Source of the DNA: an uncultured bacterium
GTDB taxonomy: Bacteria > JAGOEH01
Length of the DNA: 64,000 nt
NCBI GenBank assembly: GCA_964632485.1
Contig: CAZWDO010000011.1
Coordinates: 1 to 64,000, forward strand
Reading direction: 5' to 3'
The notes below the pieces were generated by a model that was not told the origin of the DNA, did no database searches, and saw nothing but the letters and a program-made list of their open reading frames with translations. The position numbers and the translations under genes are program-made. How positions within the stretch are numbered: the stretch's first letter is position 1; each line of letters begins with the position of its first letter. Shown piece by piece: positions 1 to 16,997 of the stretch.

Positions 1-530
1 GAATACTGCTGACCCTAACGGGCTAAAAAGTGGGGAATTCATGTGGCCCCTGACATGATAATTAATAAAACGGCTGAATTGCAAGGAACACTCCTTTTTA
101 ATAAGTTACGCTGGTCATGCCTAATAATAATATGCGTTTATTTTTTTTCAAAATGTAAATTTGCAAATATAAATGATTATTTATATCGAGCGCTTACCTA
201 TCTCTGCTGATCACATCAGTATTAAATATTCTAAGCTGAATATGCATACCAATGCGTCTAGCTGAACATAGAAAAACCCATAGGGGGTGCCCTGATAAAA
301 ATTGTGCAACAATTTTTATTAGGGATGATATGGTTATATTATTCAGATCATTGAAATTTAAATATACTACTATATGTACACATAAGGAATTTTGAACAAA
401 ATAATAAGATGAAGATAATTACTGAATAATGACTCTGAAGATTAAATATTGTTTTTTTTTTATTGTAATTTTATTTTTCTCATCATTTATTCTCCTTTTT
501 TCATGTTTTTTATGTCTTTTATCTTCTTTA

Positions 531-610
531 NNNNNNNNNNNNNNNNNNNNNNNNNNNNNNNNNNNNNNNNNNNNNNNNNNNNNNNNNNNNNNNNNNNNNN
601 NNNNNNNNNN
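531..610. other. Assembly gap (80 N)
   Basis: Run of N in the sequence; linkage across it is not guaranteed. Confidence 0.99.
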
Positions 611-976
611 ATCGGTAGCTAATAATAAGCTTTTACTGTTTAGCCCCCTTGGGGGGGGCTAACGTACACTCCTTAATGGCCTCCGGCCTCTTCTCTATTA
701 GCACCTATAATACTGTTAGTGTGTTTTCAAAAAGTGGTCATCCTTCATAGTAGGAAAATAATTTCTCATTGTATTACAACGGTTTAATTTTTTATGATTT
801 TCGATCACTTGTTATTATGCAAGTATTTATGGGAAATTTAAGCCGTTAAAATCATTATTTTTATCATTTTTTTAATTAAATTGAATATTTTTAGCTAATT
901 TTAATTAAATAATTAAATTAAACGATTGAATTAAATTGATTATTTTAATCGTTTAATTATTATAGAAAGGTTTTTT

Positions 977-1207
977 ATGGCCAGATTAATAAATCAAGAA
1001 AAAGTAAGAAATAATATTATTAAAAATTACACAAATACCATTGCAGATAAATATGCAAGGTATCTTGATTCAACACCAACGTTCTGCATATATTATTCAG
1101 GCGATTTAACTAACTCTCTGTCAGATGAGACGTTACAGAATACGGTAGAAATAGTTGGTTCAGAATCCCCGAAAAAATATGCTAAAATTAAATCGTTTAC
1201 ATTATGA
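977..1207 (+). pseudogene. Truncated phage-like protein fragment (resembles the N-terminus of a conserved AR9/PBS1-type jumbo-phage protein)
   Basis: RBS-like GAAAGG upstream. The motif RYLDSTPTFCIYY...D..L......G.ESPKKY.KI.SF.L is recalled from jumbo-phage proteins. The ORF stops after 76 aa. Similarity is from memory only. Confidence 0.35.
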
Positions 1208-1350
1208 AGTGCTTCCATCTATTCGCAAGCATGAAATTTATATGCCGGAAAAGCTGAGAAAATAATGACTGACCTGGACACAATTATTAAACCTTGTTAA
1301 AAAAATTGGATTATTTAAAATGGTTGAAGAAATAAAAAAGCAAAATAAAT

Positions 1351-1899
1351 ATGGGAGCTGATGAACGAATACAATGTATTGTGTTGTCCAACAATGATTT
1401 TATTTCAGAAGCTACTACTAGTAGCTTTAGAAAAATGGCGGATCAATTTTTTGTGTTCGGTAATGGTATCAATGTGTTTGAGGGTAGTGAAATCGAGATG
1501 TTGGAATTGAACGGGCAAATTTTATTTAATCCCTACGATGTGGGAAAAGCGTTGGATATTAAAAAACAAGGTGTGCGCAAAAACTGTTTAGCGATGGATT
1601 CAACACAGTGTATCATGTTGTATAACGACGATTTTATTTTAGAAGCTACTAATAGTAGCTTCCGAAAATTGAATAATCGCGGCGAATATTCCCTCACAGA
1701 ATCCGGCGTTTATCAATTTATTCTTCAATCTTATAGGCCCGTTACCATTGTGCTTAAAAATTGGGTAACCGATGATGAGTTGCCCACCATCCGTAGAACC
1801 GGGGAATATGTGAATAATACCAATCAATTCATTCAAGCATATTTTGGTTCATTGGAAAACAGTGTCAGAGGCCACATGAATTTTATAATGTATTTTTGA
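1351..1899 (+). CDS. Bro-N (BRO family / phage antirepressor-like) domain protein, possibly decaying
   Basis: FEGSEIEMLELNGQILFNPYDVGKALDI...LTESGVYQFILQS...NWVTDDELPTIRRTGEY is the Bro-N signature. Confidence 0.8.
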   Translation: MGADERIQCIVLSNNDFISEATTSSFRKMADQFFVFGNGINVFEGSEIEMLELNGQILFNPYDVGKALDIKKQGVRKNCLAMDSTQCIMLYNDDFILEATNSSFRKLNNRGEYSLTESGVYQFILQSYRPVTIVLKNWVTDDELPTIRRTGEYVNNTNQFIQAYFGSLENSVRGHMNFIMYF

Positions 1900-2086
1900 T
1901 ATTAAAATAATGGAAAAATATCAAAAGTTCCAGTTTGATGAATGGGATTAGTATTTCAAATCAGGGGGATTTGGAATATTTCCCGAAAAATAAAATCGAC
2001 AACAATATATATTATGGTCTTACGCTCGTACCCAGAATCTTTTTCTATATTAGGAAAATAGTGTTTCTCATTCGGTCCAGGATATA

Positions 2087-4450
2087 AACAAAGAATTAAA
2101 TCAATTTAATTCGAGCCAAAATCTGTTTTGTCCAATTATTGGTGTTATTTTATTTCCAGTGAATTTTAAAAATATTAACATATCAATAACGCATTAATTT
2201 TCATTGTATAATTCCGTTTATTAATTACTGAATATAATCCGCAACCGCTGTCATAAATTAAATATAATCCGGTATTTTAAATCTAAATGCCGTCTATCGC
2301 TTCATAAATGCGGTTTATGGCTCGTTCAGAATTTTATGTATAAGGGGACAAACATAAAAAGTCAAAAATGCCTTATCATTTAAATTTAAGCGGATTTCCG
2401 CTAAATCGGATTTCCGGATGGTAATTTTAAAATGTGTGTTGAATCATTAAATTTAATTGTTAGTATTTTCGATACCATAAAAAATATTGGAGAAGAAATC
2501 GGCAAATTTTAATTTAACACATTAAATTAAAACAATTAAATTAAAACACATAAATATTAAATCGATAACATACAATTAAATTTTGTCTTTTTCGTCTTCG
2601 TCTTAATATTCGTGGAATCGCATGTTATTAATGGTAACCAGGCATTAAATTTATTATTAACGTTATATTTTAATTTTATCGATAAATGGATTGAGTGTCT
2701 TCTCTTTAAATTTATACTTTTTATTTCTGACTACAACATATATATACACGAATAAAAATCAATTCCATCCGTTTTCGTCAGGGTCTCTAATATTCCTCAG
2801 CATAGATTTCATTGCCTGATTAAATACGAAAATTGGAGTGGATTATTAATAATGATTCAAAATATTCAAATTCATTCAAAATCGCTGAATTTTGATACTG
2901 AAAATATCAACAGTATTATTTAAGTATCCGGTATCGTTATATGCCAATTAATGAATAAGATTATTTTAAAACCCATATTTATTCATTATATATAAGGCTG
3001 TACGTTGATAGACGCCCATGAAAGAGCATATTCAGTTATCACCCCTGTTAATCGGGATTATTATATTTTCGATTTTTATTATTATGAATTTTTACATTGC
3101 CATAATCAGATACTAATAATATTTTTCGCTAACAATATATTATTGGTTATTCAAACCACAAATTTTGCATATTGGATTAAATGCCGATAAACACTCAGGA
3201 ATATAGCGACCTTGGAATATTAATTTTTCAGCTCAATAAATGCGAAAATTGATTAATGTAAAATGGAAATATTTATTTTCGGTAACATATATATAATGGA
3301 TTACAAGATCAGTATTTTATAAATTCAATTCTGAATATCTAAAATAAAAGAAGAAAATACGATGTTTTAAATTAATTTAAATTGGTAAAAGTAATTTATA
3401 ATTGAATTTTTAAATATTCAACAGTTCGAATATAATAGCTGCCGAAAGGATTATTTTTTATTTATCGATAACAGCAATATTAATGATAATAACCTCCAAT
3501 TATTTCGGCGCATCGACTAAACGTCCGTAAACACGAGGTTCGAGGAATATTTTTGAATTAAATCGGAGAATATTTAATAATCGAATTTCCCGGAATTAAA
3601 TGTTGAATTAATTTATCTAGAATCGATTTTATTTTTTTAATTTTATCATAACAGAATAATAATCATCGATGCCTTTCAGTATTGAATATGTCATAAACGT
3701 TGATGGAGACTGAATCTATGATTCTGTTCAGCATGTTATATAGGTCTGGAATTAGGATTTATTATAGCGTGAGAATTAGTAATTAATTAAAATAATACAT
3801 TTATAAAATTACTTTTTAATTTTGCTATAACAATACATTAATATTCAACAATCGCAAATGCTATATTGTGGTTCGAGCCGTCACGCTCAATATTGATTTG
3901 GTTTTATGCTGTTGGAGATTAAAAAAATAATGAAATCAAATTTAAATTGTCAATTCCAGCTCGCTGATCATTTTTGTAAATTGCCATAACACTATATTAA
4001 GCGACGTCCATAATGGCGGCTATTTCCAGTATCGATATTTTACCCCGGTACGGACGCACGCCATTATCGGGGAAAATAATTTTTTCACAGTCTGGCCTGT
4101 CCTGTACATTTTTTCAAATTCCAATAAACATATTATTAATGAATAAGGCCTGATATGCGCTCATTGACCAGGGAAACGAGAATAAATAATCGGGTTCAGC
4201 GAATATTTTCATCGTTAATGGTTGAAGCTTTTCAAAAATATATCAATTTTTTCTCTGAAAAAACTAACAAGATATTAAGAAGTGGAAGCCATGGGGTAAA
4301 TATGCCCGGAAAATAACATGGCCTTGTCCATTTTTTTTTCAACCCATGAACAATATAATAATGATAGGAGGCTCGCTTATGTTATAGCGATTTAATTTCT
4401 AACTGTTTTTGTTTTCCGTTAAAGGGTCGCCCGCTAGCTGGGGCCCTGTC
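2087..4450 (+). repeat. Degenerate tandem array of T-run + AACA-N6-TA motifs with unique hairpin-containing spacers
   Basis: Exact motif at 2087, 2177, 2545, 2567, 2735, 3131, 3284, 3650, 3829, 3988, 4127, 4266, 4349; near matches at 2909 and 3470; only one match seen on the - strand. Confidence 0.65.
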
Positions 4451-4492
4451 TTGATGAAGTGAACAATCGTAAACGAAAAGGTACTGATAACC

Positions 4493-4726
4493 ATGAAAAA
4501 ACTTGTCGATCAATACAGCCAGGATGTCGATCTGGTGACCACCTCCGAGCTGTCGCGCATGTTTAAAATCTCCAGGTCGAAAATCTATGAGCTGATCGAG
4601 GAGCATCAAATCCCGACCTTCCGCATCGGGAAGAAAATCATGCTCAACGCAAGCGATTGGACGTCGCGCGTTTTTGGCGGACAATATCAAATCAAGGAGG
4701 ATAATGACGAAATAACAGATTCATAA
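4493..4726 (+). CDS. Excisionase-family (HTH_17/AlpA-like) DNA-binding protein
   Basis: LVTTSELSRMFKISRSKIYELIEEHQIPTFRIGKKI is a winged-HTH excisionase pattern. Confidence 0.85.
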   Translation: MKKLVDQYSQDVDLVTTSELSRMFKISRSKIYELIEEHQIPTFRIGKKIMLNASDWTSRVFGGQYQIKEDNDEITDS

Positions 4727-4912
4727 TTTAGTTCCAGTATATTTCGAATATACAGAGTCTTTTTTTCAATTTAATATCTTTTTTCGTGAAACGATGAATA
4801 TCTAGATTATCCATCGCTTTAATTATTGGTTGGCGGGATGCTCGTCGGTAACCCTTCCGAGAAATCATCCCACCAACACAAATTAAAATGGAGAAATATA
4901 TATTAAAACAAT

Positions 4913-5315
4913 TGTTCGCGCGCGAACATTTTTTTTTAAATATTCTATCTCTATATTATTTATGTCATTACCGGTATTTTAAAAAGGTTAAAAAATGTTT
5001 TGCAATAAAAATAGGTAACTCATTGATAATGAATCGGTAATGAACCTCTATCCCGTTAAAAGTTAAAAAAGTTAAAAATGTTTGTATAATAGCCTCATAT
5101 ATTATCCATATTGAATTCTCATCTAAAATATATTAGAAGTTTCTTAATTTTTTAACTGAATCTGTATTAAGCTATTGGTTTTCAATGGGTAATCGATCTA
5201 TTTCGAACCAAAGTTTTTTTAACCATTTTTAACCTTTTCATCTATGAAAAATCCCCTTGAACGTAGTATTGATCGATGATTGAAGCAATATCACGCTCTC
5301 GTGAGATTTTTAACC
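4913..5315. other. Putative replication origin of the element (iterons plus palindrome)
   Basis: Perfect 16-bp palindrome TGTTCGCGCGCGAACA (4913-4928). GTTAAAA repeats at 4987, 5055, 5062, 5071 face inverted TTTTAAC copies near 5150, 5217, 5227, 5308. Lies directly upstream of the primase-helicase. Confidence 0.5.
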
Positions 5316-5367
5316 CGTTTTTTAAAAAAAACAACAATAACGTTAACCTTAAAAAGGATTAACACAC

Positions 5368-7632
5368 ATGAAATCAATATACCAACATGAGGCCATGACG
5401 CTGTTCGACCTTGGCCTGAAGCCGATTCCCTTGAATGGGAAAATCCCCTTCATTAGCGGATGGCAAACCATGGAGATTACAGCGGATGATGTGGAAACAT
5501 GGTCCACACAGTATCCCGATTGCAACATCGGTATTGTCTGCGGTCCATCCAGCGGCATTTTAGTCGTGGATTTTGACGATCCCGATGAAATGGCGCGTCT
5601 GAATACCGAAACCGGCATCAATCTGGATATCGTGACGCCGACTTGCATCACCAAGAAGGGTCTCCATAAATATTTCAAGTATCCGGCAATTGGAGCCACG
5701 TTTGGCAATCGCACCCATCTGAATGTGCAGGGCATCAAATTCAAGATTGATATTCGGGCGACTGGCGGCCAGGTGGTCGCGCCGCCCAGCATTCACCCCG
5801 AGGATACCACATTCCAGTATCATTGGGCGGAGGGGCTGGCATTCGGAGAGGTTCCGCTACAGGATTTACCAGATATGTTTATCGATGTATTGACGCAACC
5901 CTCGAAGCCGAAAATCACGAAGAAGAATAAAAAATCCACCGCTACCGCTACAGCGGCGACTTTACCGGCGCTTGATCCGCTTCCATCGTCACCCGTGGCC
6001 ATTGAGCCTATAGAGGCTACGACACAGGCAGTCGATTCACTTCCATCGATACCAGCGGAGGCCATCACACCCATGGCACCCTCGTCGCCCGCGATCGCCG
6101 ACGAAATTCCCGAAGGCGAACGCAACGATACACTCTTTCGCATGGCCTGCGCCTACCGCAACAAGGGATTGTCCAGCGAAGAAGCGCGAAATCTGATCGC
6201 TGCTGTCAATCAAACCCGCTGCCGCATTCCCTTGAATGACGAGGAATTGGACAAGGTGATGGGAAGCGCGTTTTCCTATGTGCATGAACATTTTGAGATG
6301 AGCGACCGCGGCTTCGCGCAAAAAGTCCTTGAGCAGTGTGGAAATCAGATTAAATATTGCATCGAGGACCATCATTGGTATATATGGAACGGCTTCATCT
6401 GGAGCCAGGACGCCAATGGGGAAATCAAGCGCATGGCAGACAGGGTGGCGGACCTGTTGAAAGCTAGCATCCAGGCGATGCCGGACAGCGATCCCATGAA
6501 AAAACCGTATCTCAAATATATTGCCGCAATGGGCAATACCCGAAAACGGGAAGATATGCTGCATTATTTGCAGTCATTACCCGGAGTCAGCGTTTCCAAC
6601 TCTCATTTTGATAAACGCAGTCATCTCTTGAATTGCCGCAATGGCGTCATCAATCTCCGTAGCGGCGAGTTGCTGGAATCGAACCCGGACTGGCTGTTGA
6701 CCCGGCAGATTGAAATCGAATACGATCCGACGGCGGCATGTCCGGTCTGGCTGGAATTTATGAAAACGATCACCCACGACGATATGGAGTTGATTGGGTA
6801 TTTGCAACGGGCCGCCGGATACTCCATAACCGGCGAGACGAACGAAGAAGTGGTGTTTTTTCTCTATGGCACGGGCTGCAATGGAAAATCGACCTTCATC
6901 AATGCGATCAATTCCGTATTGGGAAAATTCGCCAGGACCATGCCGTCAAAAACGCTGATGATAGTTCAAAACGATAACACAGCATCAAATGACATCGCCA
7001 TGCTCAAGGGCGTGCGCTTGGCGGCCACCACGGAACTGCCGGAAGGCAAGCGCTTCAATGAAGAATTGATCAAATCGCTGGCGTCGCAGGATATCATTTC
7101 CGCCCGCTATTTGTTCAAGGAATACTTTGAATTCAGCCCGACGCACAAATGGTGGATTTCCGGCAACCACAAACCCAAGATTGTCGGCCAGGACTACGGC
7201 ATCTGGCGCCGGTTGAAGCTAATCCCGTTTGAAATCACCATTTCTCCGGAAAAGCAAGACAAGAACCTCAAGGAAAAGCTGGAAGCCGAACTCCCGGGCA
7301 TCCTGCGCTGGATGGTCGAAGGCGCCGTTGAATGGTACCGCAATGGCTTGCGGGAACCGGCGAAAATCTCCGAAGCCGTTAAAGAATACCGCAATGAAAT
7401 GGATATTCTCGGCAATTTCATCGCGGAATGCTGCCAGACGGACTCCGACGCCATGATTCCGGTGAACAATCTTTACAATTTGTACAAGCAGTACTGCGAG
7501 ACGAACGGCCAAAGCACATTGGGCAAAAAGATGTTCAATTTGAAGATGGTGGAACGCGGATTCAAGAAAGATTTCGGAGCCAAAAACCAGGTTTGCTTGT
7601 TTGGCATCAAGGCGGCCGCTTCGCAAAAATAA
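5368..7632 (+). CDS. Bifunctional primase/polymerase (Prim-Pol) + PriCT + D5/P4-family SF3 helicase
   Basis: NIGIVCG..SGILVVDFD, GLHKYF, DIRATGGQVVAPPSIH (PrimPol); EGERNDTLF (PriCT); LLNCRNGVINL (D5_N); Walker A GTGCNGKS; WRRLKLIPF. Confidence 0.93.
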   Translation: MKSIYQHEAMTLFDLGLKPIPLNGKIPFISGWQTMEITADDVETWSTQYPDCNIGIVCGPSSGILVVDFDDPDEMARLNTETGINLDIVTPTCITKKGLHKYFKYPAIGATFGNRTHLNVQGIKFKIDIRATGGQVVAPPSIHPEDTTFQYHWAEGLAFGEVPLQDLPDMFIDVLTQPSKPKITKKNKKSTATATAATLPALDPLPSSPVAIEPIEATTQAVDSLPSIPAEAITPMAPSSPAIADEIPEGERNDTLFRMACAYRNKGLSSEEARNLIAAVNQTRCRIPLNDEELDKVMGSAFSYVHEHFEMSDRGFAQKVLEQCGNQIKYCIEDHHWYIWNGFIWSQDANGEIKRMADRVADLLKASIQAMPDSDPMKKPYLKYIAAMGNTRKREDMLHYLQSLPGVSVSNSHFDKRSHLLNCRNGVINLRSGELLESNPDWLLTRQIEIEYDPTAACPVWLEFMKTITHDDMELIGYLQRAAGYSITGETNEEVVFFLYGTGCNGKSTFINAINSVLGKFARTMPSKTLMIVQNDNTASNDIAMLKGVRLAATTELPEGKRFNEELIKSLASQDIISARYLFKEYFEFSPTHKWWISGNHKPKIVGQDYGIWRRLKLIPFEITISPEKQDKNLKEKLEAELPGILRWMVEGAVEWYRNGLREPAKISEAVKEYRNEMDILGNFIAECCQTDSDAMIPVNNLYNLYKQYCETNGQSTLGKKMFNLKMVERGFKKDFGAKNQVCLFGIKAAASQK

Positions 7633-7823
7633 TCCACCCGTGGCGGTGGAATGTAGGCATAGTTGACACCCATCACATCTTATCCTCAGCCAGGAGGCAC
7701 CTATGATCCGGGCTCCATAGCACGGAACTACTCCGTTTTGCTTCCGTTTTGTATTATCGGCACCTCGATGCGTAGAGACCGATAAAATTCAAAATTATTG
7801 CCATTTAAAAAAAGGATAATCAT

Positions 7824-8366
7824 ATGTATTATTTAGTCACCGATTATGCGCCCTGGATGATCCACAGGGAGCAATATTTGACAGTCTCGTTGATGACGTT
7901 GGATCAAATCACGTTTGCTGATGACTGCATCTTTGGATCGAAAATCGATTTCATGGAAATTTATGGAATGTTTATGGGCAATTGGATTATCGAAGACTCA
8001 CGCCCCAATTTTCGGCGAATTGTGGCTCCCCGTTTCCGTCCGCCACGGGGCAGGTATAATGATTTCTATGAACCCCAATCAGATTCGAAAATTCATGGAG
8101 AAATTGCGAAAGGGTCTAAGATTATCAGCGAATATCACGATCTTCCCATCGCGATAAACCTGACGCATAACCAAAGCCTATATGAAATTTCCGTTACCGT
8201 GGGTCTAAACACACCTGAGACCTTTCGTGTCGAACTGGTTATCCCCAAGGAATATTGGGTAAACTTCACAACTTATGACTATTGTAATTACATTCGGCTT
8301 GAAACGCATTCCACCTTATTATATGATGCTCCTGAAGAAACGAAGAAAAAGCCAAGCGATATTTAA
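7824..8366 (+). CDS. Hypothetical protein (element cargo)
   Basis: 180-aa ORF with AAGGA RBS between the replication and integration genes; no recognised motif. Confidence 0.6.
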   Translation: MYYLVTDYAPWMIHREQYLTVSLMTLDQITFADDCIFGSKIDFMEIYGMFMGNWIIEDSRPNFRRIVAPRFRPPRGRYNDFYEPQSDSKIHGEIAKGSKIISEYHDLPIAINLTHNQSLYEISVTVGLNTPETFRVELVIPKEYWVNFTTYDYCNYIRLETHSTLLYDAPEETKKKPSDI

Positions 8367-8632
8367 GGGTGAACCGCATCTATCGTATTCGTCAATTTTA
8401 AAAACCTATTATCATTAAATTATTTTAGATCGGAGAAATCCCATGTCCCTGATTCGGGCGCCGTAATGATACCGGCATGATTGAGCTAAACTCAGGGAAG
8501 GGTCAACACCATCATTATCAACATATAAATCCATTATAAACAAATATAGACCCTGAACCCGGAATGGCGAGAAACCATTCACCACTGTGTTATGAACGAT
8601 AGATTCCCAATCCCTATATACAAGGAAGCGAT

Positions 8633-8941
8633 ATGAAGAAGACCCTTCAAGAACGGATCGATGACTATCAGGCCAGAAAGGCCAATCCCAAGCGGAAATC
8701 CCAGAAAAAAACGGTGAAACCGGCTCAACCCGCGACCGGTGAAAACGCTTCAAACCTTGATAAAATGTATACAGTCAAGCAAGTCAAGAACTTGTTGCAC
8801 ATGTCCGACGAAACCGTGTATAAGCAGATTAGATCGGGAGAACTGGGTTATATTAAGATAAGTGAGAGACGGTATATAATCTCCGAATCCGATTTGAAGG
8901 AATACCTGGATGCTCATCGACACCATGCTATTGTCGCGTAG
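8633..8941 (+). CDS. Excisionase-family HTH_17 DNA-binding protein
   Basis: MYTVKQVKNLLHMSDETVYKQIRSGELGYIKISERRYIISESDLKEYL; AAGGA RBS. Confidence 0.88.
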   Translation: MKKTLQERIDDYQARKANPKRKSQKKTVKPAQPATGENASNLDKMYTVKQVKNLLHMSDETVYKQIRSGELGYIKISERRYIISESDLKEYLDAHRHHAIVA

Positions 8942-8952
8942 CTTTAGCTGGA

Positions 8953-8990
8953 GAAGGGATGGCTGGCTTCCATCCCTTCCCGTTTCGTTT
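8953..8990 (+). terminator. Rho-independent terminator after the excisionase
   Basis: GAAGGGATGG/CCATCCCTTC stem followed by a T-rich tract. Confidence 0.6.
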
Positions 8991-9009
8991 AATTTCAATA
9001 ACAATTGGC

Positions 9010-9038
9010 TTGACAATTCAACCAAAACCGCCTATAAT
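9010..9038 (+). promoter_or_regulatory. Consensus sigma70 promoter of the integrase
   Basis: TTGACA-17 bp-TATAAT, a perfect consensus. Confidence 0.8.
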
Positions 9039-9133
9039 ATAGATGAATGTCCACCCGGAGGGATTTACGGTCCCGCCGGTCGGAGCGGTCTGACACATTC
9101 CTTTACATAGGTGAAATGGAAAGGCTCCTTATT

Positions 9134-10243
9134 ATGAGCAAAAAAAAATTTCATTCGGACAATGTCTCGATTGTTCAAATCAACGGCCAGGATTGGTATC
9201 GGTTCGACCGGTACATCAATGGTGTTCGCATTCAGAAGCGGATCGGTCAGGTCGGCAAAATCACGGAGAAGGTCGCCAAAGAAACGGGAGAGCGTTTGTA
9301 TCGGGAATACATGGAGAAACCGGTACAAAAAGGCGCTCCGGCCAAAATAAAAGATTTGCGCTTCAATGAAGCCGTGGATCACTTCTTCGATGTTCTGGAA
9401 AAGCAGCCATACAAGATTACCGAAAAGACTCGCAAAATGGGTACTTATTATGTCCGCGATCATCGCAACAATGCCAAAAATCTGTTAAAACGGTTTGCTA
9501 GAAAATTGATTTGTCAAATCAAAAAGGACGATATTCTTGAATACATGTATCAACGCCTTTTAAATCATGCTCAATCGACCATCAATAAAGAAGTCGTATT
9601 TCTCAAGCTGCTCTGGAAGCTATTGGTTCGGGAAGGCTACCTGCAGGAAAACCTTATGAACCAGATCAAATTATCGAAACCGAGTAACAAGCGTACCGTA
9701 GTTTTCAACGAAGAAGAGTATAATCTTTTGTTGGAAAATTGCACTGGCGATAAATCCCATCTCACACCGATTCTGATCATAGCAGCCTTGACCGGGATGC
9801 GCAAGTCTGAATTGTTGAGTCTTCGATACGATCGGATTGATTTTGATCACAAAGTTGTGCATCTCGCAAAGACAAAGAGCGGTGAGCCTCAGGATGTCCA
9901 TTTGTGCGATACCGCGCTTGAGGAATTGGCGCGAATGAAGGCGAAGGCCCGGGATAAAAAAGGCTATGTCTTTCTATACAAAGGAAAGCCGATCAAGGAT
10001 ATCAAGACATCATTCGGTAAGTTGCTCAAAGCATGTGGCCTGGAAGATAAAGGGTATCGTTTCCACGACACCCGCAGCTTTTTCTGCACGGAATTGATCA
10101 AACACGGGGCGAATGTCGAAGCGGTTCGCAATCTGGCGCGCCATAAAGACGTCAATACAACCCTGCGCTATGTGCGAATGACAAAACCAGAGCTCAATAG
10201 TGCCGTCAATACGATGAACAACATTTTCAAGCCGAATCGATAA
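9134..10243 (+). CDS. int: Tyrosine recombinase / phage integrase (ORF open from 9047; likely start 9134)
   Basis: TGMRKSEL (R), KTKSG (K), FHDTR (HxxR), ARHK (H), TLRY (Y); adjacent to a tRNA. Confidence 0.95.
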   Translation: MSKKKFHSDNVSIVQINGQDWYRFDRYINGVRIQKRIGQVGKITEKVAKETGERLYREYMEKPVQKGAPAKIKDLRFNEAVDHFFDVLEKQPYKITEKTRKMGTYYVRDHRNNAKNLLKRFARKLICQIKKDDILEYMYQRLLNHAQSTINKEVVFLKLLWKLLVREGYLQENLMNQIKLSKPSNKRTVVFNEEEYNLLLENCTGDKSHLTPILIIAALTGMRKSELLSLRYDRIDFDHKVVHLAKTKSGEPQDVHLCDTALEELARMKAKARDKKGYVFLYKGKPIKDIKTSFGKLLKACGLEDKGYRFHDTRSFFCTELIKHGANVEAVRNLARHKDVNTTLRYVRMTKPELNSAVNTMNNIFKPNR

Positions 10244-10261
10244 ATAGCGTTGATCTGCAAA

Positions 10262-10290
10262 GTCATAGGAGGAGATTTTCCTCCTATGAC
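10262..10290 (+). terminator. Stem-loop after the integrase (probable terminator)
   Basis: GTCATAGGAGGA/TCCTCCTATGAC perfect 12-bp stem. Confidence 0.65.
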
Positions 10291-10516
10291 ATTATTTCAT
10301 TGAATAGTTGTCTAAAATCAAGCTTTGATCCCCAAAAAATCCCCATTGTATGTGGAGTATGTGGAATAATTGGTTATCGAAAACAAGGATAAACTGATTG
10401 AATGGCATACGGAAAACCCTAAAATTTAGCGTTTTGGTCAATATCGGATAAAACCTGACAAAAAGCCCCGTTTCGATGGGCTTTTAAATGTCTTAAGTCT
10501 ATGTTGTTCAGTTGGA

Positions 10517-10590
10517 TGCCCCTTAAAGGATTCGAACCTTCGGCCTACGGATTAGGAATCCGTTGCTCTATCCATCTGAGCTAAAGGGGC
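10517..10590 (-). tRNA. tRNA-Arg (anticodon CCT)
   Basis: Reverse complement GCCCCTTTAGCTCAGATGGATAGAGCAACGGATTCCTAATCCGT...GGTTCGAATCCTTTAAGGGGCA forms a cloverleaf. Confidence 0.97.
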
Positions 10591-10923
10591 TAAATTCCCG
10601 ATTAAGTCCAAAATTATAATCATACCATTGCTTATAGATACTGGTCTTGTTACACCTTATTGCACTTGAAATTCACCGCAATAGGGATTCGAATGAACTA
10701 CAGGATTTAATTAAATCATTTTTACAAATTTGTCAAGCTTTTTTTTAGTGTATCTGACTAATATATTCAATTCAGCAATCATTGCTGCGTCTGAGACGCA
10801 GCACTAAATACACCTGTTTTTTCATCCATTCTCCAAACTATTTCTAAAACATTTACCCATCAACTTCTACTTAAAATGTTCGTAGACCACCAACTTTGCT
10901 CCTGATATATTCTTGTGGTGATG

Positions 10924-11436
10924 CTAAATTTCCTTACTTTCATTACTCTCCGGATTCTTTCCCTTGCCGAAACTCCCTTTATGATAGTATTGGGGATACA
11001 AATTTTGACAGCATGTGGGGCACAGTCCATGAGTAAATTGCACATCTGTTAAATGCTGTGTGATATATTCCTCAACTTGATGCCAATACCCTTCATCATC
11101 GCGGATTTTTTTACAGTTTGAACAGATTGGCAAAAGTTTACTTAATGTGCTAATCTCTGACATTGCTTTTTCAAGGTCTTTATTTTGTTCATTAATTTTT
11201 TCATAAGCATCAATGAGTTTTTTTTCATAAAGATCACTAATCCTTGTTATCTTTATAGTATCCTTCAATAATTTCTCATATTGAACAATTAAATGCCGAA
11301 AATCAGCTTGGATTTTTTCAATATTGATTTCTGTGTTATTTAACGAGTTTTTTGCGTCATTTAGAATATTGAATTCGGATGAATAAATCAGATGAGTCGA
11401 ATCGCTTAATGTCTTTTTGGTTTTCATATTAATCAC
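10924..11436 (-). CDS. SiaD-like N-terminal coiled-coil fused to a C-terminal CxxC...HxxCxxC putative Zn-binding domain
   Basis: YEKLLKDTIKITRISD helix; LLPICSNCKKIRDDEGYW...FTHGLCPTC; last gene of the sia-like cassette. Confidence 0.7.
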   Translation of the reverse strand: MINMKTKKTLSDSTHLIYSSEFNILNDAKNSLNNTEINIEKIQADFRHLIVQYEKLLKDTIKITRISDLYEKKLIDAYEKINEQNKDLEKAMSEISTLSKLLPICSNCKKIRDDEGYWHQVEEYITQHLTDVQFTHGLCPTCCQNLYPQYYHKGSFGKGKNPESNESKEI

Positions 11437-15992: not shown

Positions 15993-16997
15993 CTAAAAGC
16001 GAAAAAGAAATGAAAAACGATGGGTATCACTGAATAGTGAAAAACGGGTGAAACTATAATCAATCTGCAAAAGGTAATCGCCCAGTGGTATATAAATCCC
16101 TGAACCCAGTGATAATCCCTCATCAGAATCGCGGCTATCATCCATTCGATTCTGATGATGATACCCAAATTTATATCCTCCCCGAAGAGATATTTCATCC
16201 CTGAATATGTATTCAAGTCCCCCGTAATATAATTGATGATAATCCTGCGGTTTGATCAAATCAGAATAGAGAATCAAGGAGGAATTCGCATCTTCTGCCA
16301 GCGCTAAGGATACACCCATTGCAAACTGAAGTGGAATAGGCGCATTGATCTGATAAAAACGAATGTCGGATCCCAAATTATTCAGGCGGGCCCCGATCGT
16401 CAAGTGACGCCAATCGACGGGATATAACACACCGAAATCCCAGGCGAATGCAGTAGCAGCCTGCCGGTCAATTGTTTCCCGTAGATATTTCAATGTCGCG
16501 CCAAAAACATAATTGCTTTTAAACTGGTAACTATAGGTTATTTGAAGAGATAAATCAGAAAAACCATAAGTTTCCGTCTGACGTTCATCCATTTGATATA
16601 TTTCAAATCCCGGAGGGGCCACATCCCGATCAGCGGGAATATCTCCGAAACCCAACCAATTAAATCCAATGCCGATTGTACCGGCACGATAATTTTTACT
16701 TACATAAGCCAAGGTTATATGCTGTAAATCCAATAGCCAGTTATTATAGGAAAAAGCGATTTGGGTTTTATGAGAAAGAGAATAGATTCCGGCAGGATTC
16801 CAGAACATATTATTGGGATCGTCTCTTAAAGTCGTCACTGCTGAACCGAGACTGGTTTGGCGAGCGCCTACTCCTATTTTTAAAAAAGCCAATCCCGTCA
16901 TTCCACTTTTGGAAGCATTCGCTTCAAGTCGCATAAAACTGCCTATCAAGAAAATTAATAAAAGTGTTCTCATCAACATTTTACAATCTTTCTTCAT
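15993..16997 (-). CDS. PorV/PorQ (UPF0164)-family outer-membrane beta-barrel
   Basis: FLKIGVGARQTSLG...FWNPAG; C-terminal THRFSFLFRF. Confidence 0.85.
   Translation of the reverse strand: MKKDCKMLMRTLLLIFLIGSFMRLEANASKSGMTGLAFLKIGVGARQTSLGSAVTTLRDDPNNMFWNPAGIYSLSHKTQIAFSYNNWLLDLQHITLAYVSKNYRAGTIGIGFNWLGFGDIPADRDVAPPGFEIYQMDERQTETYGFSDLSLQITYSYQFKSNYVFGATLKYLRETIDRQAATAFAWDFGVLYPVDWRHLTIGARLNNLGSDIRFYQINAPIPLQFAMGVSLALAEDANSSLILYSDLIKPQDYHQLYYGGLEYIFRDEISLRGGYKFGYHHQNRMDDSRDSDEGLSLGSGIYIPLGDYLLQIDYSFTRFSLFSDTHRFSFLFRF

Follow-up and report, generated by a model that had tools for sequence, protein, structure and literature searches.

A gene-free tract in the genome of an uncultured bacterium (GTDB lineage Bacteria; JAGOEH01) carries a series of promoter-like modules that all point the same way, into the genes of a small candidate integrative island. 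The tract lies within the 64-kb stretch analysed here (assembly GCA_964632485.1, contig CAZWDO010000011.1, positions 1 to 64,000; hereafter the window), which starts at a contig end, and it occupies 2087–4363 on the + strand, where 13 exact AACA-N6-TA motifs and 2 near sites fall in DNA of ~26% GC that is free of open reading frames (ORFs). We tentatively read this array as a diverged tandem set of at least 11 promoters for host RNA polymerase that lack a −35 box and would need an extra factor, probably one borne by an infection.

The first-pass annotation of this DNA, made from its letters alone, had described a strand-biased run of AACA-N6-TA in a tract without a credible ORF, and systematic counting bears that description out. 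Over 1900–4492, the tract used for testing (2593 nt, 28.6% GC), the + strand holds exact motifs at 2087, 2177, 2545, 2567, 2735, 3131, 3284, 3650, 3829, 3988, 4127, 4266 and 4349, together with near matches at 2909 (8-nt spacer) and 3470 (7-nt spacer), and the − strand holds a single site at 3717–3728. Dinucleotide-preserving shuffles of the same tract (n = 2000) yielded on average 1.35 motifs on the + strand (standard deviation 1.14, maximum 7), and none of the 2000 reached 13. This strong enrichment is local: over the whole window the motif occurs 39 times against 35.1 expected, a count reached by 28 of 100 shuffles. When 2.5-kb windows were slid across the genome (66 contigs, 4.45 Mb), all those with at least 7 motifs belonged to the array locus, and the next best held 6. 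Low GC content alone does not explain the array, because other AT-rich DNA of this genome has about a tenth of its motif density: 11 further segments below 30% GC (34.5 kb) contain 19 motifs on the + strand and 23 on the − strand, or 0.61 per kb per strand, compared with 5.7 per kb in the array. The array DNA is single-copy within its own genome.

Alignment of the copies defines a repeat unit longer than the 12-nt pattern, consisting of a run of 5–9 T, then (AT)AACA, then nn-ATATTAA. The resulting module of ~35 bp (consensus TTTTTTTATnTTnCnATAACAnnATATTAATnAT) has a mean column identity of 39%, and conservation does not extend beyond it. Eleven such modules cover 2718–4363, with AACA at 2735, 2909, 3131, 3284, 3470, 3650, 3829, 3988, 4127, 4266 and 4349. 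The earlier observation that copies tend to follow a T run holds: at 9 of the 15 sites AACA is preceded by at least five T ending 4–13 nt before it, compared with 8.5% of all tract positions. The copies are also regularly spaced. Gaps between consecutive modules measure 174, 222, 153, 186, 180, 179, 159, 139, 139 and 83 bp (161 ± 37 bp; coefficient of variation 0.23), and only 2 of 100,000 random placements were as even. The outermost exact sites, at 2087, 2177, 2545 and 2567, have no T run and little of the extended motif, and may be chance matches or decayed copies. Inter-module DNA is essentially unrelated, with a mean pairwise local score of 10.7 compared with 10.0 for shuffled sequence and shared k-mers not beyond the null, except for faint collinear similarity in a few spacer pairs (3131 with 3470, and 3284 with 3470; best local score 21, null 95th percentile 16). 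The picture is of an old tandem duplication in which the 35-bp module alone has been retained.

The conserved core of the module is the −10 box of host promoters. Upstream of 28 of the 45 tRNA genes of this genome we recognized a promoter made of an A tract, cTTGACt, ~17 nt, and TATATT followed by A, with −10 column counts over the 28 genes of T28 A28 T26 A23 T17 T28 and then A15; the ATATTA-A conserved in the module is this TATATT-A box. A hexamer of the form xAnnnT lies 0–4 nt past AACA in 10 of the 11 modules, and seven of these match TATATT at five or more of six positions. The AACA-N6-TA pattern is thus a by-product of AACA-n-TATATT-A, because the N6 positions are themselves conserved and spell the host −10 box. 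If the hexamer spans −12 to −7, AACA falls at about −17 to −14, and it is absent as a feature of host promoters in the tRNA gene set. The host −35 box is missing as well: at 16–18 nt upstream, 9 of the 10 modules that have a −10 box match TTGACA at only 1–3 of six positions, and TTGATA occurs there in module 2 alone. In seven consecutive modules, those with AACA from 3470 to 4349, the hexamer 16–18 nt upstream of the −10 box is instead made of 5–6 T and matches TTGACA at only 1–3 of six positions.

The individual modules, all on the + strand, differ in how well they fit this geometry. Module 1 (2718–2749) reads T5, 12 nt, AACA and TATATATA and has no clean −10-type hexamer; module 2 (2890–2923), a near match with AACA at 2909, also forms a classical TTGATA-16-TATTAT promoter; module 3 (3122–3145) has AACA-A-TATATT with T5 just 4 nt upstream, off the −35 position; and module 4 (3276–3298) has TATAAT 4 nt past AACA and no T run at the −35 position. 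From module 5 onwards the T run stands in register. Module 5 (3454–3484), the near match with AACA at 3470, has T6, a 16-nt spacer and AATATT; module 6 (3632–3664) has T7, 16 nt and AATAAT; module 7 (3813–3843) has T5, 16 nt and TACATT; module 8 (3971–4002) has T5, 16 or 17 nt and TATATT, matching the host −10 box at 6 of 6 positions; module 9 (4109–4141) has T6, 16 nt and TATTAT; module 10 (4247–4280) has T6, 16–18 nt and GATATT; and module 11 (4331–4363) has T9 over the −35 position and TATAAT. Module 11 is likely to be the promoter of an alpA-like gene, as it ends 130 nt before that gene's start codon. The sole terminator-like site of the tract (4373–4390) lies past this last module, and none occurs between modules. 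Within the 130-nt leader of the alpA-like gene, the segment 4373–4447 contains a small hairpin followed by a T-rich run (4373–4390) and a GC-rich near-palindrome (~4425–4447); the leader is partly shared with a homologue on contig C41 and is a possible attenuator. A general host promoter or regulon was considered as a source of the module and rejected: its weight matrix has 247 genome-wide matches of at least 11 bits, and among the best 70 only nine carry a T run, five of which are the array itself.

The first-pass annotation had interpreted the motifs as a battery of phage-type promoters matching the late promoters of the jumbo phage AR9. The battery part stands, in that a same-direction, gene-free and promoter-like series is present, and the AR9 part is weak. 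In agreement with what was stated there, PMC5312081 gives AACA-(6N)-TA/G as the consensus of AR9 late promoters, with AACA at −11 to −8, T at −1 and the start at the final A or G (+1), and the non-virion RNA polymerase of AR9 reads its promoters in the template strand and does not accept thymine for uracil at −11/−10 (PMC7598289). We consider it highly improbable that the sites are late promoters of an AR9/PBS1-type non-virion polymerase, with transcription starting at the last A of AACA-N6-TA. The + strand does match the late pattern literally 13 times, the sites share with AR9 promoters the lack of a −35 box and an AT-rich setting, and the AT-rich core also recalls the early consensus, given as AAATATATATTAT-(6N)-G in PMC5312081, with AACAATATATTAT at 3131 matching 11 of 13 positions by manual count. 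Against this, the 6N of the array is conserved and spells a host −10 box, and 7 of the 11 modules carry a T run at −35 that is foreign to the AR9 consensus. The AR9 enzyme requires uracil-containing DNA and fails on thymine promoters (PMC7598289), whereas a chromosomal island is expected to hold thymine. Moreover, the assembly has one rpoB and one rpoC locus (contig C35), both the host's, although a free phage would fall outside the bin; the host belongs to a sparsely sampled lineage that is not Bacillus-like; and no phage record and no listed viral contig carries repeated copies of the module. The expectation that a related phage would use the motif accordingly found no counterpart in phage records or among the listed IMG/VR matches. 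The AR9 match is literal and probably coincidental.

The reading that we tentatively prefer is a promoter set answering to host polymerase plus an incoming factor, which keeps in generalized form the first-pass idea that the battery sequesters a phage polymerase or is switched on only during infection. All modules are oriented rightwards, towards the island's genes for the alpA-like protein, the primase-helicase and the integrase, and each combines the host −10 box (TATATT-A) with the island-specific AACA, with a T run in place of TTGAC in the seven modules nearest the genes. If the modules are transcribed, host RNA polymerase would open the −10 boxes and would bind poorly for want of a −35 box, so that the modules would stay weak in the meantime. 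An extra factor would then recognize the AACA and T-run part. Candidates are an activator or a sigma encoded by a phage, or a sigma-appropriating protein, and the most plausible carrier is an infecting helper phage. Arranged in series with no terminators between them, the modules could deliver a steep additive burst of read-through into the alpA-like gene, for excision, and the primase gene, for replication, and might incidentally titrate the factor. A variant that we regard as quite improbable has the modules read only by machinery that the phage brings, whether a polymerase of its own or a factor that is sigma-like or appropriating, which would make the array at once an infection sensor that fires the excision and replication genes and a sink in competition with the promoters of the phage. 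In its boldest, AR9-like version, the sites would become active only once the primase-helicase copies them with uracil drawn from a phage-altered nucleotide pool.

Protein-coding content does not account for the tract. The longest stop-free frames measure 49–66 codons in the six frames, each of which contains 32–52 TAA codons, and no reassignment of a stop codon opens the tract: with TGA or TAG read as sense, the maximum is 88 codons. Structured RNA was likewise considered and set aside: Rfam returned no match at E ≤ 1 over 611–5400, and at gathering thresholds only three tRNAs in the window. A VIPR guide-RNA array, defined as tandem 5-bp GG[C/T]NN units with at least four in a row (bioRxiv 10.64898/2026.10.15.759431), was also rejected, with no run of three or more such units on either strand of 1–11000.

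These results bear on a different explanation, in which the modules are ordinary host promoters of weak to moderate strength, each serving a tiny small RNA (sRNA) or a micropeptide of 10–50 aa; the array would then be a diverged family of tiny genes whose spacing reflects product size. Tandem sRNA paralogues and type I toxin arrays provide models for such a family. The even spacing is what this explanation predicts, the residual similarity between the spacers at 3131, 3284 and 3470 fits diverged duplicates, and a few small ORFs are available, such as 4155–4316 (53 aa, with AAGG 8 nt upstream) and a hydrophobic 32-aa ORF at 3018–3116. The folding of the 11 candidate payloads ranges from z = −2.2 to +0.7 relative to shuffles and falls below −1 in only two (z = −2.2 and −1.5); the other nine fold no better than shuffles (z −0.5 to +0.7). 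Further evidence goes against tiny genes: the spacers share no k-mer beyond the null and barely exceed shuffled sequence in mean score, Rfam found nothing, and there is no terminator-like site between modules. Most of the small ATG-initiated ORFs of the tract lack a ribosome-binding site, and none of eight matched a PHROG family in a search of 15 proteins that included 7 other ORFs of the island. We judge this explanation unlikely.

The array also occurs in another sample. Contigs from runs X2 and X3, which represent sample S2 and are dated 2012 (run X1 is dated 2018), carry the array at ~98–99% identity; one contig of 1255 nt, for example, covers 2035–3287 and differs at 17 positions, with 2 gaps besides. 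None of these positions lies inside a module, compared with 1.4 expected, which is not a significant deficit. Runs X2 and X3 also contain a variant in which 2225–3788 (1564 nt, including 6 of the 11 modules, 2718–3664) is replaced by 25 unrelated nucleotides, at a depth of 13–14 similar to that of the full-length form. Pieces of the left arm (611–4400) reach depths of 10–18 in X2 and X3 and the primase and integrase arm 3–6.5, a roughly 3-fold difference by summed contig depth, itself a rough measure, which hints that in the S2 population the left arm is joined to other right arms. A joint of 927 to 10834 in X2 (depth 2, side 21) has too little support to be taken for an empty site.

Relatives of the array were sought more widely. 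The host lineage is sparsely sampled: the 60 other genomes searched include one of its family and one further member of its order. Scans for related primase loci with a single protein as query found none, and the Bro-N and alpA-like proteins encoded beside the array returned no loci when used as queries; alignment-based primase scans returned 80 + 80 loci. The closest primase homologues, at 62% and 55% identity, lie on contigs of 3.4 and 4.4 kb.

Several observations weigh against a set of factor-dependent promoters. The full geometry is present in 7 of the 11 modules, module 2 has a normal TTGATA −35 box, and modules 1, 3 and 4 fit poorly. A strong −10 box in AT-rich surroundings might suffice for host polymerase alone, and even spacing of 140–190 bp could mean that the inter-module DNA itself has a function. 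Family searches with the island's 180-aa and 92-aa ORFs gave no candidate for a factor; the 180-aa ORF has no family match and a poor Atlas model. Among the listed sequencing runs that contain the stretch, none is recorded as RNA. None of 166 loci with related primases (30–45% identity; the island's own loci L001 and L008 excluded) has more than 6 motif matches per 2.5 kb, the pattern matches 0 times in G001 and once in G002, the two nearest genomes, and blastn of the array DNA against phage records gave no match. In IMG/VR, a pattern scan reported at least 117 stretches, with one module match each among the 80 listed, and an exact 24-mer search had 0 matches. Because no relative of the array was found, its conservation can be judged only within one near-identical population. 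Finally, the array is variable in length and largely dispensable, as the variant lacking 2225–3788 indicates.

Some of the same observations would suit a functionless relic, in which tandem amplification of an AT-rich unit of ~160–180 bp that held a promoter by chance was followed by decay that is still under way. Promoter-like sequences abound in AT-rich foreign DNA, the distal modules 1, 3 and 4 look degraded, as do the four outermost AACA sites, a natural variant does without 2225–3788, and relatives of the tract are missing from phage records, from the 166 primase loci and from the two nearest genomes. Decay, however, should strike module and spacers equally; here the spacers have fallen to background similarity and the module has been kept 11 times with strict strand bias. 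No such cluster exists in other AT-rich DNA of the genome, and the sequence differs by only ~1.4% in a sample from another year. A relic of this kind therefore appears improbable, and a retained set of promoters dependent on an infection-borne factor continues to be the reading that we favour.

The genes next to the array suggest the kind of element it belongs to. Directly left of it, a Bro-N/anti-repressor-like ORF of 182 aa (1351–1899, + strand) matches PF02498 and PHROG Ant families down to 2e-19, and a 76-aa ORF also lies on that side. The Bro-N ORF contains a 70-nt direct repeat (1368–1437 and 1602–1671, 81% identity) that duplicates a protein segment of ~23 aa. Clusters of short AATTAAAT-type repeats, including tandem units of ~14 bp (ACAATTAAATTAAA), occur at 870–960, upstream of the 76-aa ORF, and at 2500–2585, bordering the module array on its left. 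In the non-coding DNA on that side of the array, CGGATTTCCG, a possible regulator-binding site, occurs twice, 16 bp apart, at 2391–2416. The first gene downstream is the alpA-like gene, an excisionase-family helix-turn-helix (HTH) gene of 77 aa (4493–4726; PF12728 at 2.7e-9, TIGR01764 at 4.7e-8). It is followed by a 754-aa primase-helicase of the P4 family (5368–7632; PrimPol, D5_N and DUF5906), then by ORFs of no assigned family, a second excisionase-family HTH gene (8633–8941, 102 aa) and a tyrosine integrase (9047–10243, 398 aa). All of these downstream island genes lie on the + strand, as the modules do, and GC content rises from 26% in the array to 43–51% in the replication arm.

The 640-bp gap between the alpA-like and primase-helicase genes holds four GTTAAAA and four inverted TTTTAAC motifs (4987–5314), distinct from the array motif and likely to mark the origin or an operator of the island. 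This cluster bears on the proposal that the modules are repeated protein-binding sites, acting as a replication enhancer, centromere, packaging site or silencer, with the primase-helicase, the alpA-like or Bro-N protein, or a partition, packaging or nucleoid protein as candidate binders. In P4, ori and crr contain iterons bound by the alpha primase-helicase, and the array resembles them in being made of short direct repeats outside the coding DNA of an element that encodes a P4-family primase. Direct repeats of one orientation in AT-rich DNA adjoining such a gene would suit this proposal, as would the T run and core, which may resemble bent-DNA binding sites, and two HTH proteins and a Bro-N protein without known targets are encoded nearby. 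Yet the spacing of 140–220 bp is ~10 times that of known iteron and centromere arrays, including those of P4, and a more typical iteron cluster already exists at 4987–5314. The best-conserved part of the module, moreover, is a host −10 box in register with a T run, which binding sites do not predict. We consider binding sites decidedly unlikely, and the factor-dependent promoters preferable.

The limits of the island are less sharp than its core. At the integrase end it is flanked by tRNA-Arg(CCT) (10517–10590, − strand). On the left, a solo copy of the terminal 20 nt of a mobile-element end, matching at 19 of 20 positions, lies at 1863–1882 on the − strand, inverted relative to the copy at 36–55 and overlapping the last Bro-N codons; it may represent the left boundary, or the insertion point, of the array-bearing segment. 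This mobile-element end is multi-copy, occurring at 1–55 and 1863–1882 of the window, on C66, and on C30 (16615–16735), C41 (2278–2330), C43 (2234–2260) and C49 (~3507). It is built of 3–4 sub-repeats, GTGGGGAAT...GACCCT, followed by a terminal ...GGCCCCTGACA, and its copies differ in their flanks, which include OmpA-like, beta-lactamase-like, TPR and IS66 genes. The start of the window falls within one copy, the first 55 nt being identical to C66, and the integrase-side end near 10459 has in common with this element only TGTCAGG and degenerate sub-repeats. A search of 1–5400 for an attL, as direct repeats of 10–13 nt of the tRNA-side sequence, found none. The AT-rich contig ends C20, C24 and C65 were considered as the missing left part of the element and rejected; C65 (1553 nt, locus L291) is 32% GC and fully coding, with an internal N run and phage-like ORFs, and may be a binned phage fragment.

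Other islands of this type appear to exist in the same genome. At least four more integrases are 45–89% identical to that of the island (C17:1–940, C28:40260–40823, C38:18183–19313, and C41:10394–11266 and 16452–16661); those on C17, C28 and C38 lie beside tRNA genes, and the same three reach contig ends. A homologue of the alpA-like gene (77% identity) lies on C41, where the contig stops 103 nt upstream of the gene, at the place that an array would occupy. Taken together, these sequences point to a family of such islands in the genome, at which the assembly breaks.

Among described satellites, the closest likeness is to PICMI of marine Vibrionaceae, for which PMC10803314 gives a mandatory core of an integrase (PF00589), an alpA gene (PF05930 or PF12728) and a primase (PF13148 or PF19263) together. 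The present island has PF00589, PF12728 (twice) and PF19263 within 4493–10243. It abuts tRNA-Arg(CCT) and not fis, and its host is not a member of the Vibrionaceae; it is therefore PICMI-like and not a member of the group. The two share the integrase, alpA and primase core, small size, a marine habitat and large non-coding regions, which are common in PICMI (PMC10803314). They differ in gene order, in integration site (tRNA-Arg here, fis there) and in host, and the accessible text of PMC10803314 describes no promoter array. In PICMI, alpA, up1 and prim form an early regulon that a virulent helper phage turns on by an unknown mechanism (PMC10803314); the authors of that work state that what triggers alpA and primase at helper infection is unknown, and the array touches that question.

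About 29% of the candidate island (~2.5 of 8.6 kb, provided that 1863 and ~10459 are its true ends) consists of ordered modules aimed at the alpA-like and primase genes. If these modules answer to a phage factor, they give a sequence signature by which to trace the helper, in whose own genes the motif should recur, and would form a simply designed switch that is steep and gated by infection. Should they instead serve host polymerase alone or act as binding sites, the array would still record an unusual selection that keeps a 35-bp signal 11 times while the spacers drift. Literature searches turned up neither a satellite described as having a multi-copy promoter battery nor a promoter decoy, and on that basis we hold the layout to be undescribed. 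The observation itself is solid and odd, although it comes from one locus of an uncultured organism.

Three kinds of known promoter-rich DNA place the array in context. Spurious promoters in AT-rich, horizontally acquired DNA titrate RNA polymerase; such DNA resembles the array in being foreign, AT-rich and dense in −10-like boxes, and invites the same idea of polymerase sequestration, but its promoters lie on both strands, unevenly and with no shared upstream motif, whereas the array has strict strand bias, a 35-bp module and even spacing. Clustered early promoters occur at phage genome ends, as in T7 A1-A2-A3 and the host-takeover module of SPO1, where, as here, several same-direction promoters within a few hundred base pairs fire into the first genes. 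T7 has three of these, those of SPO1 are separated by small genes and terminators, and both have full host boxes, in contrast to 11 modules with no −35 boxes, genes or terminators. The T4 middle promoters with MotA/AsiA, phi29 A3 with p4, and the late promoters of P2 and P4 with Ogr/Delta lack a −35 box and work through host polymerase plus a phage factor, and those of P4 sit in a satellite and are turned on by the helper. Like them, the modules combine a good −10 box of host type with a short upstream motif specific to the element and have no host −35 box, whereas those promoters stand singly before genes, and the AACA and T run match none of them. The array is thus known in kind, as factor-dependent phage and satellite promoters are, and here that kind of promoter is multiplied into an ORF-free array of 11 in series over 1.6 kb.

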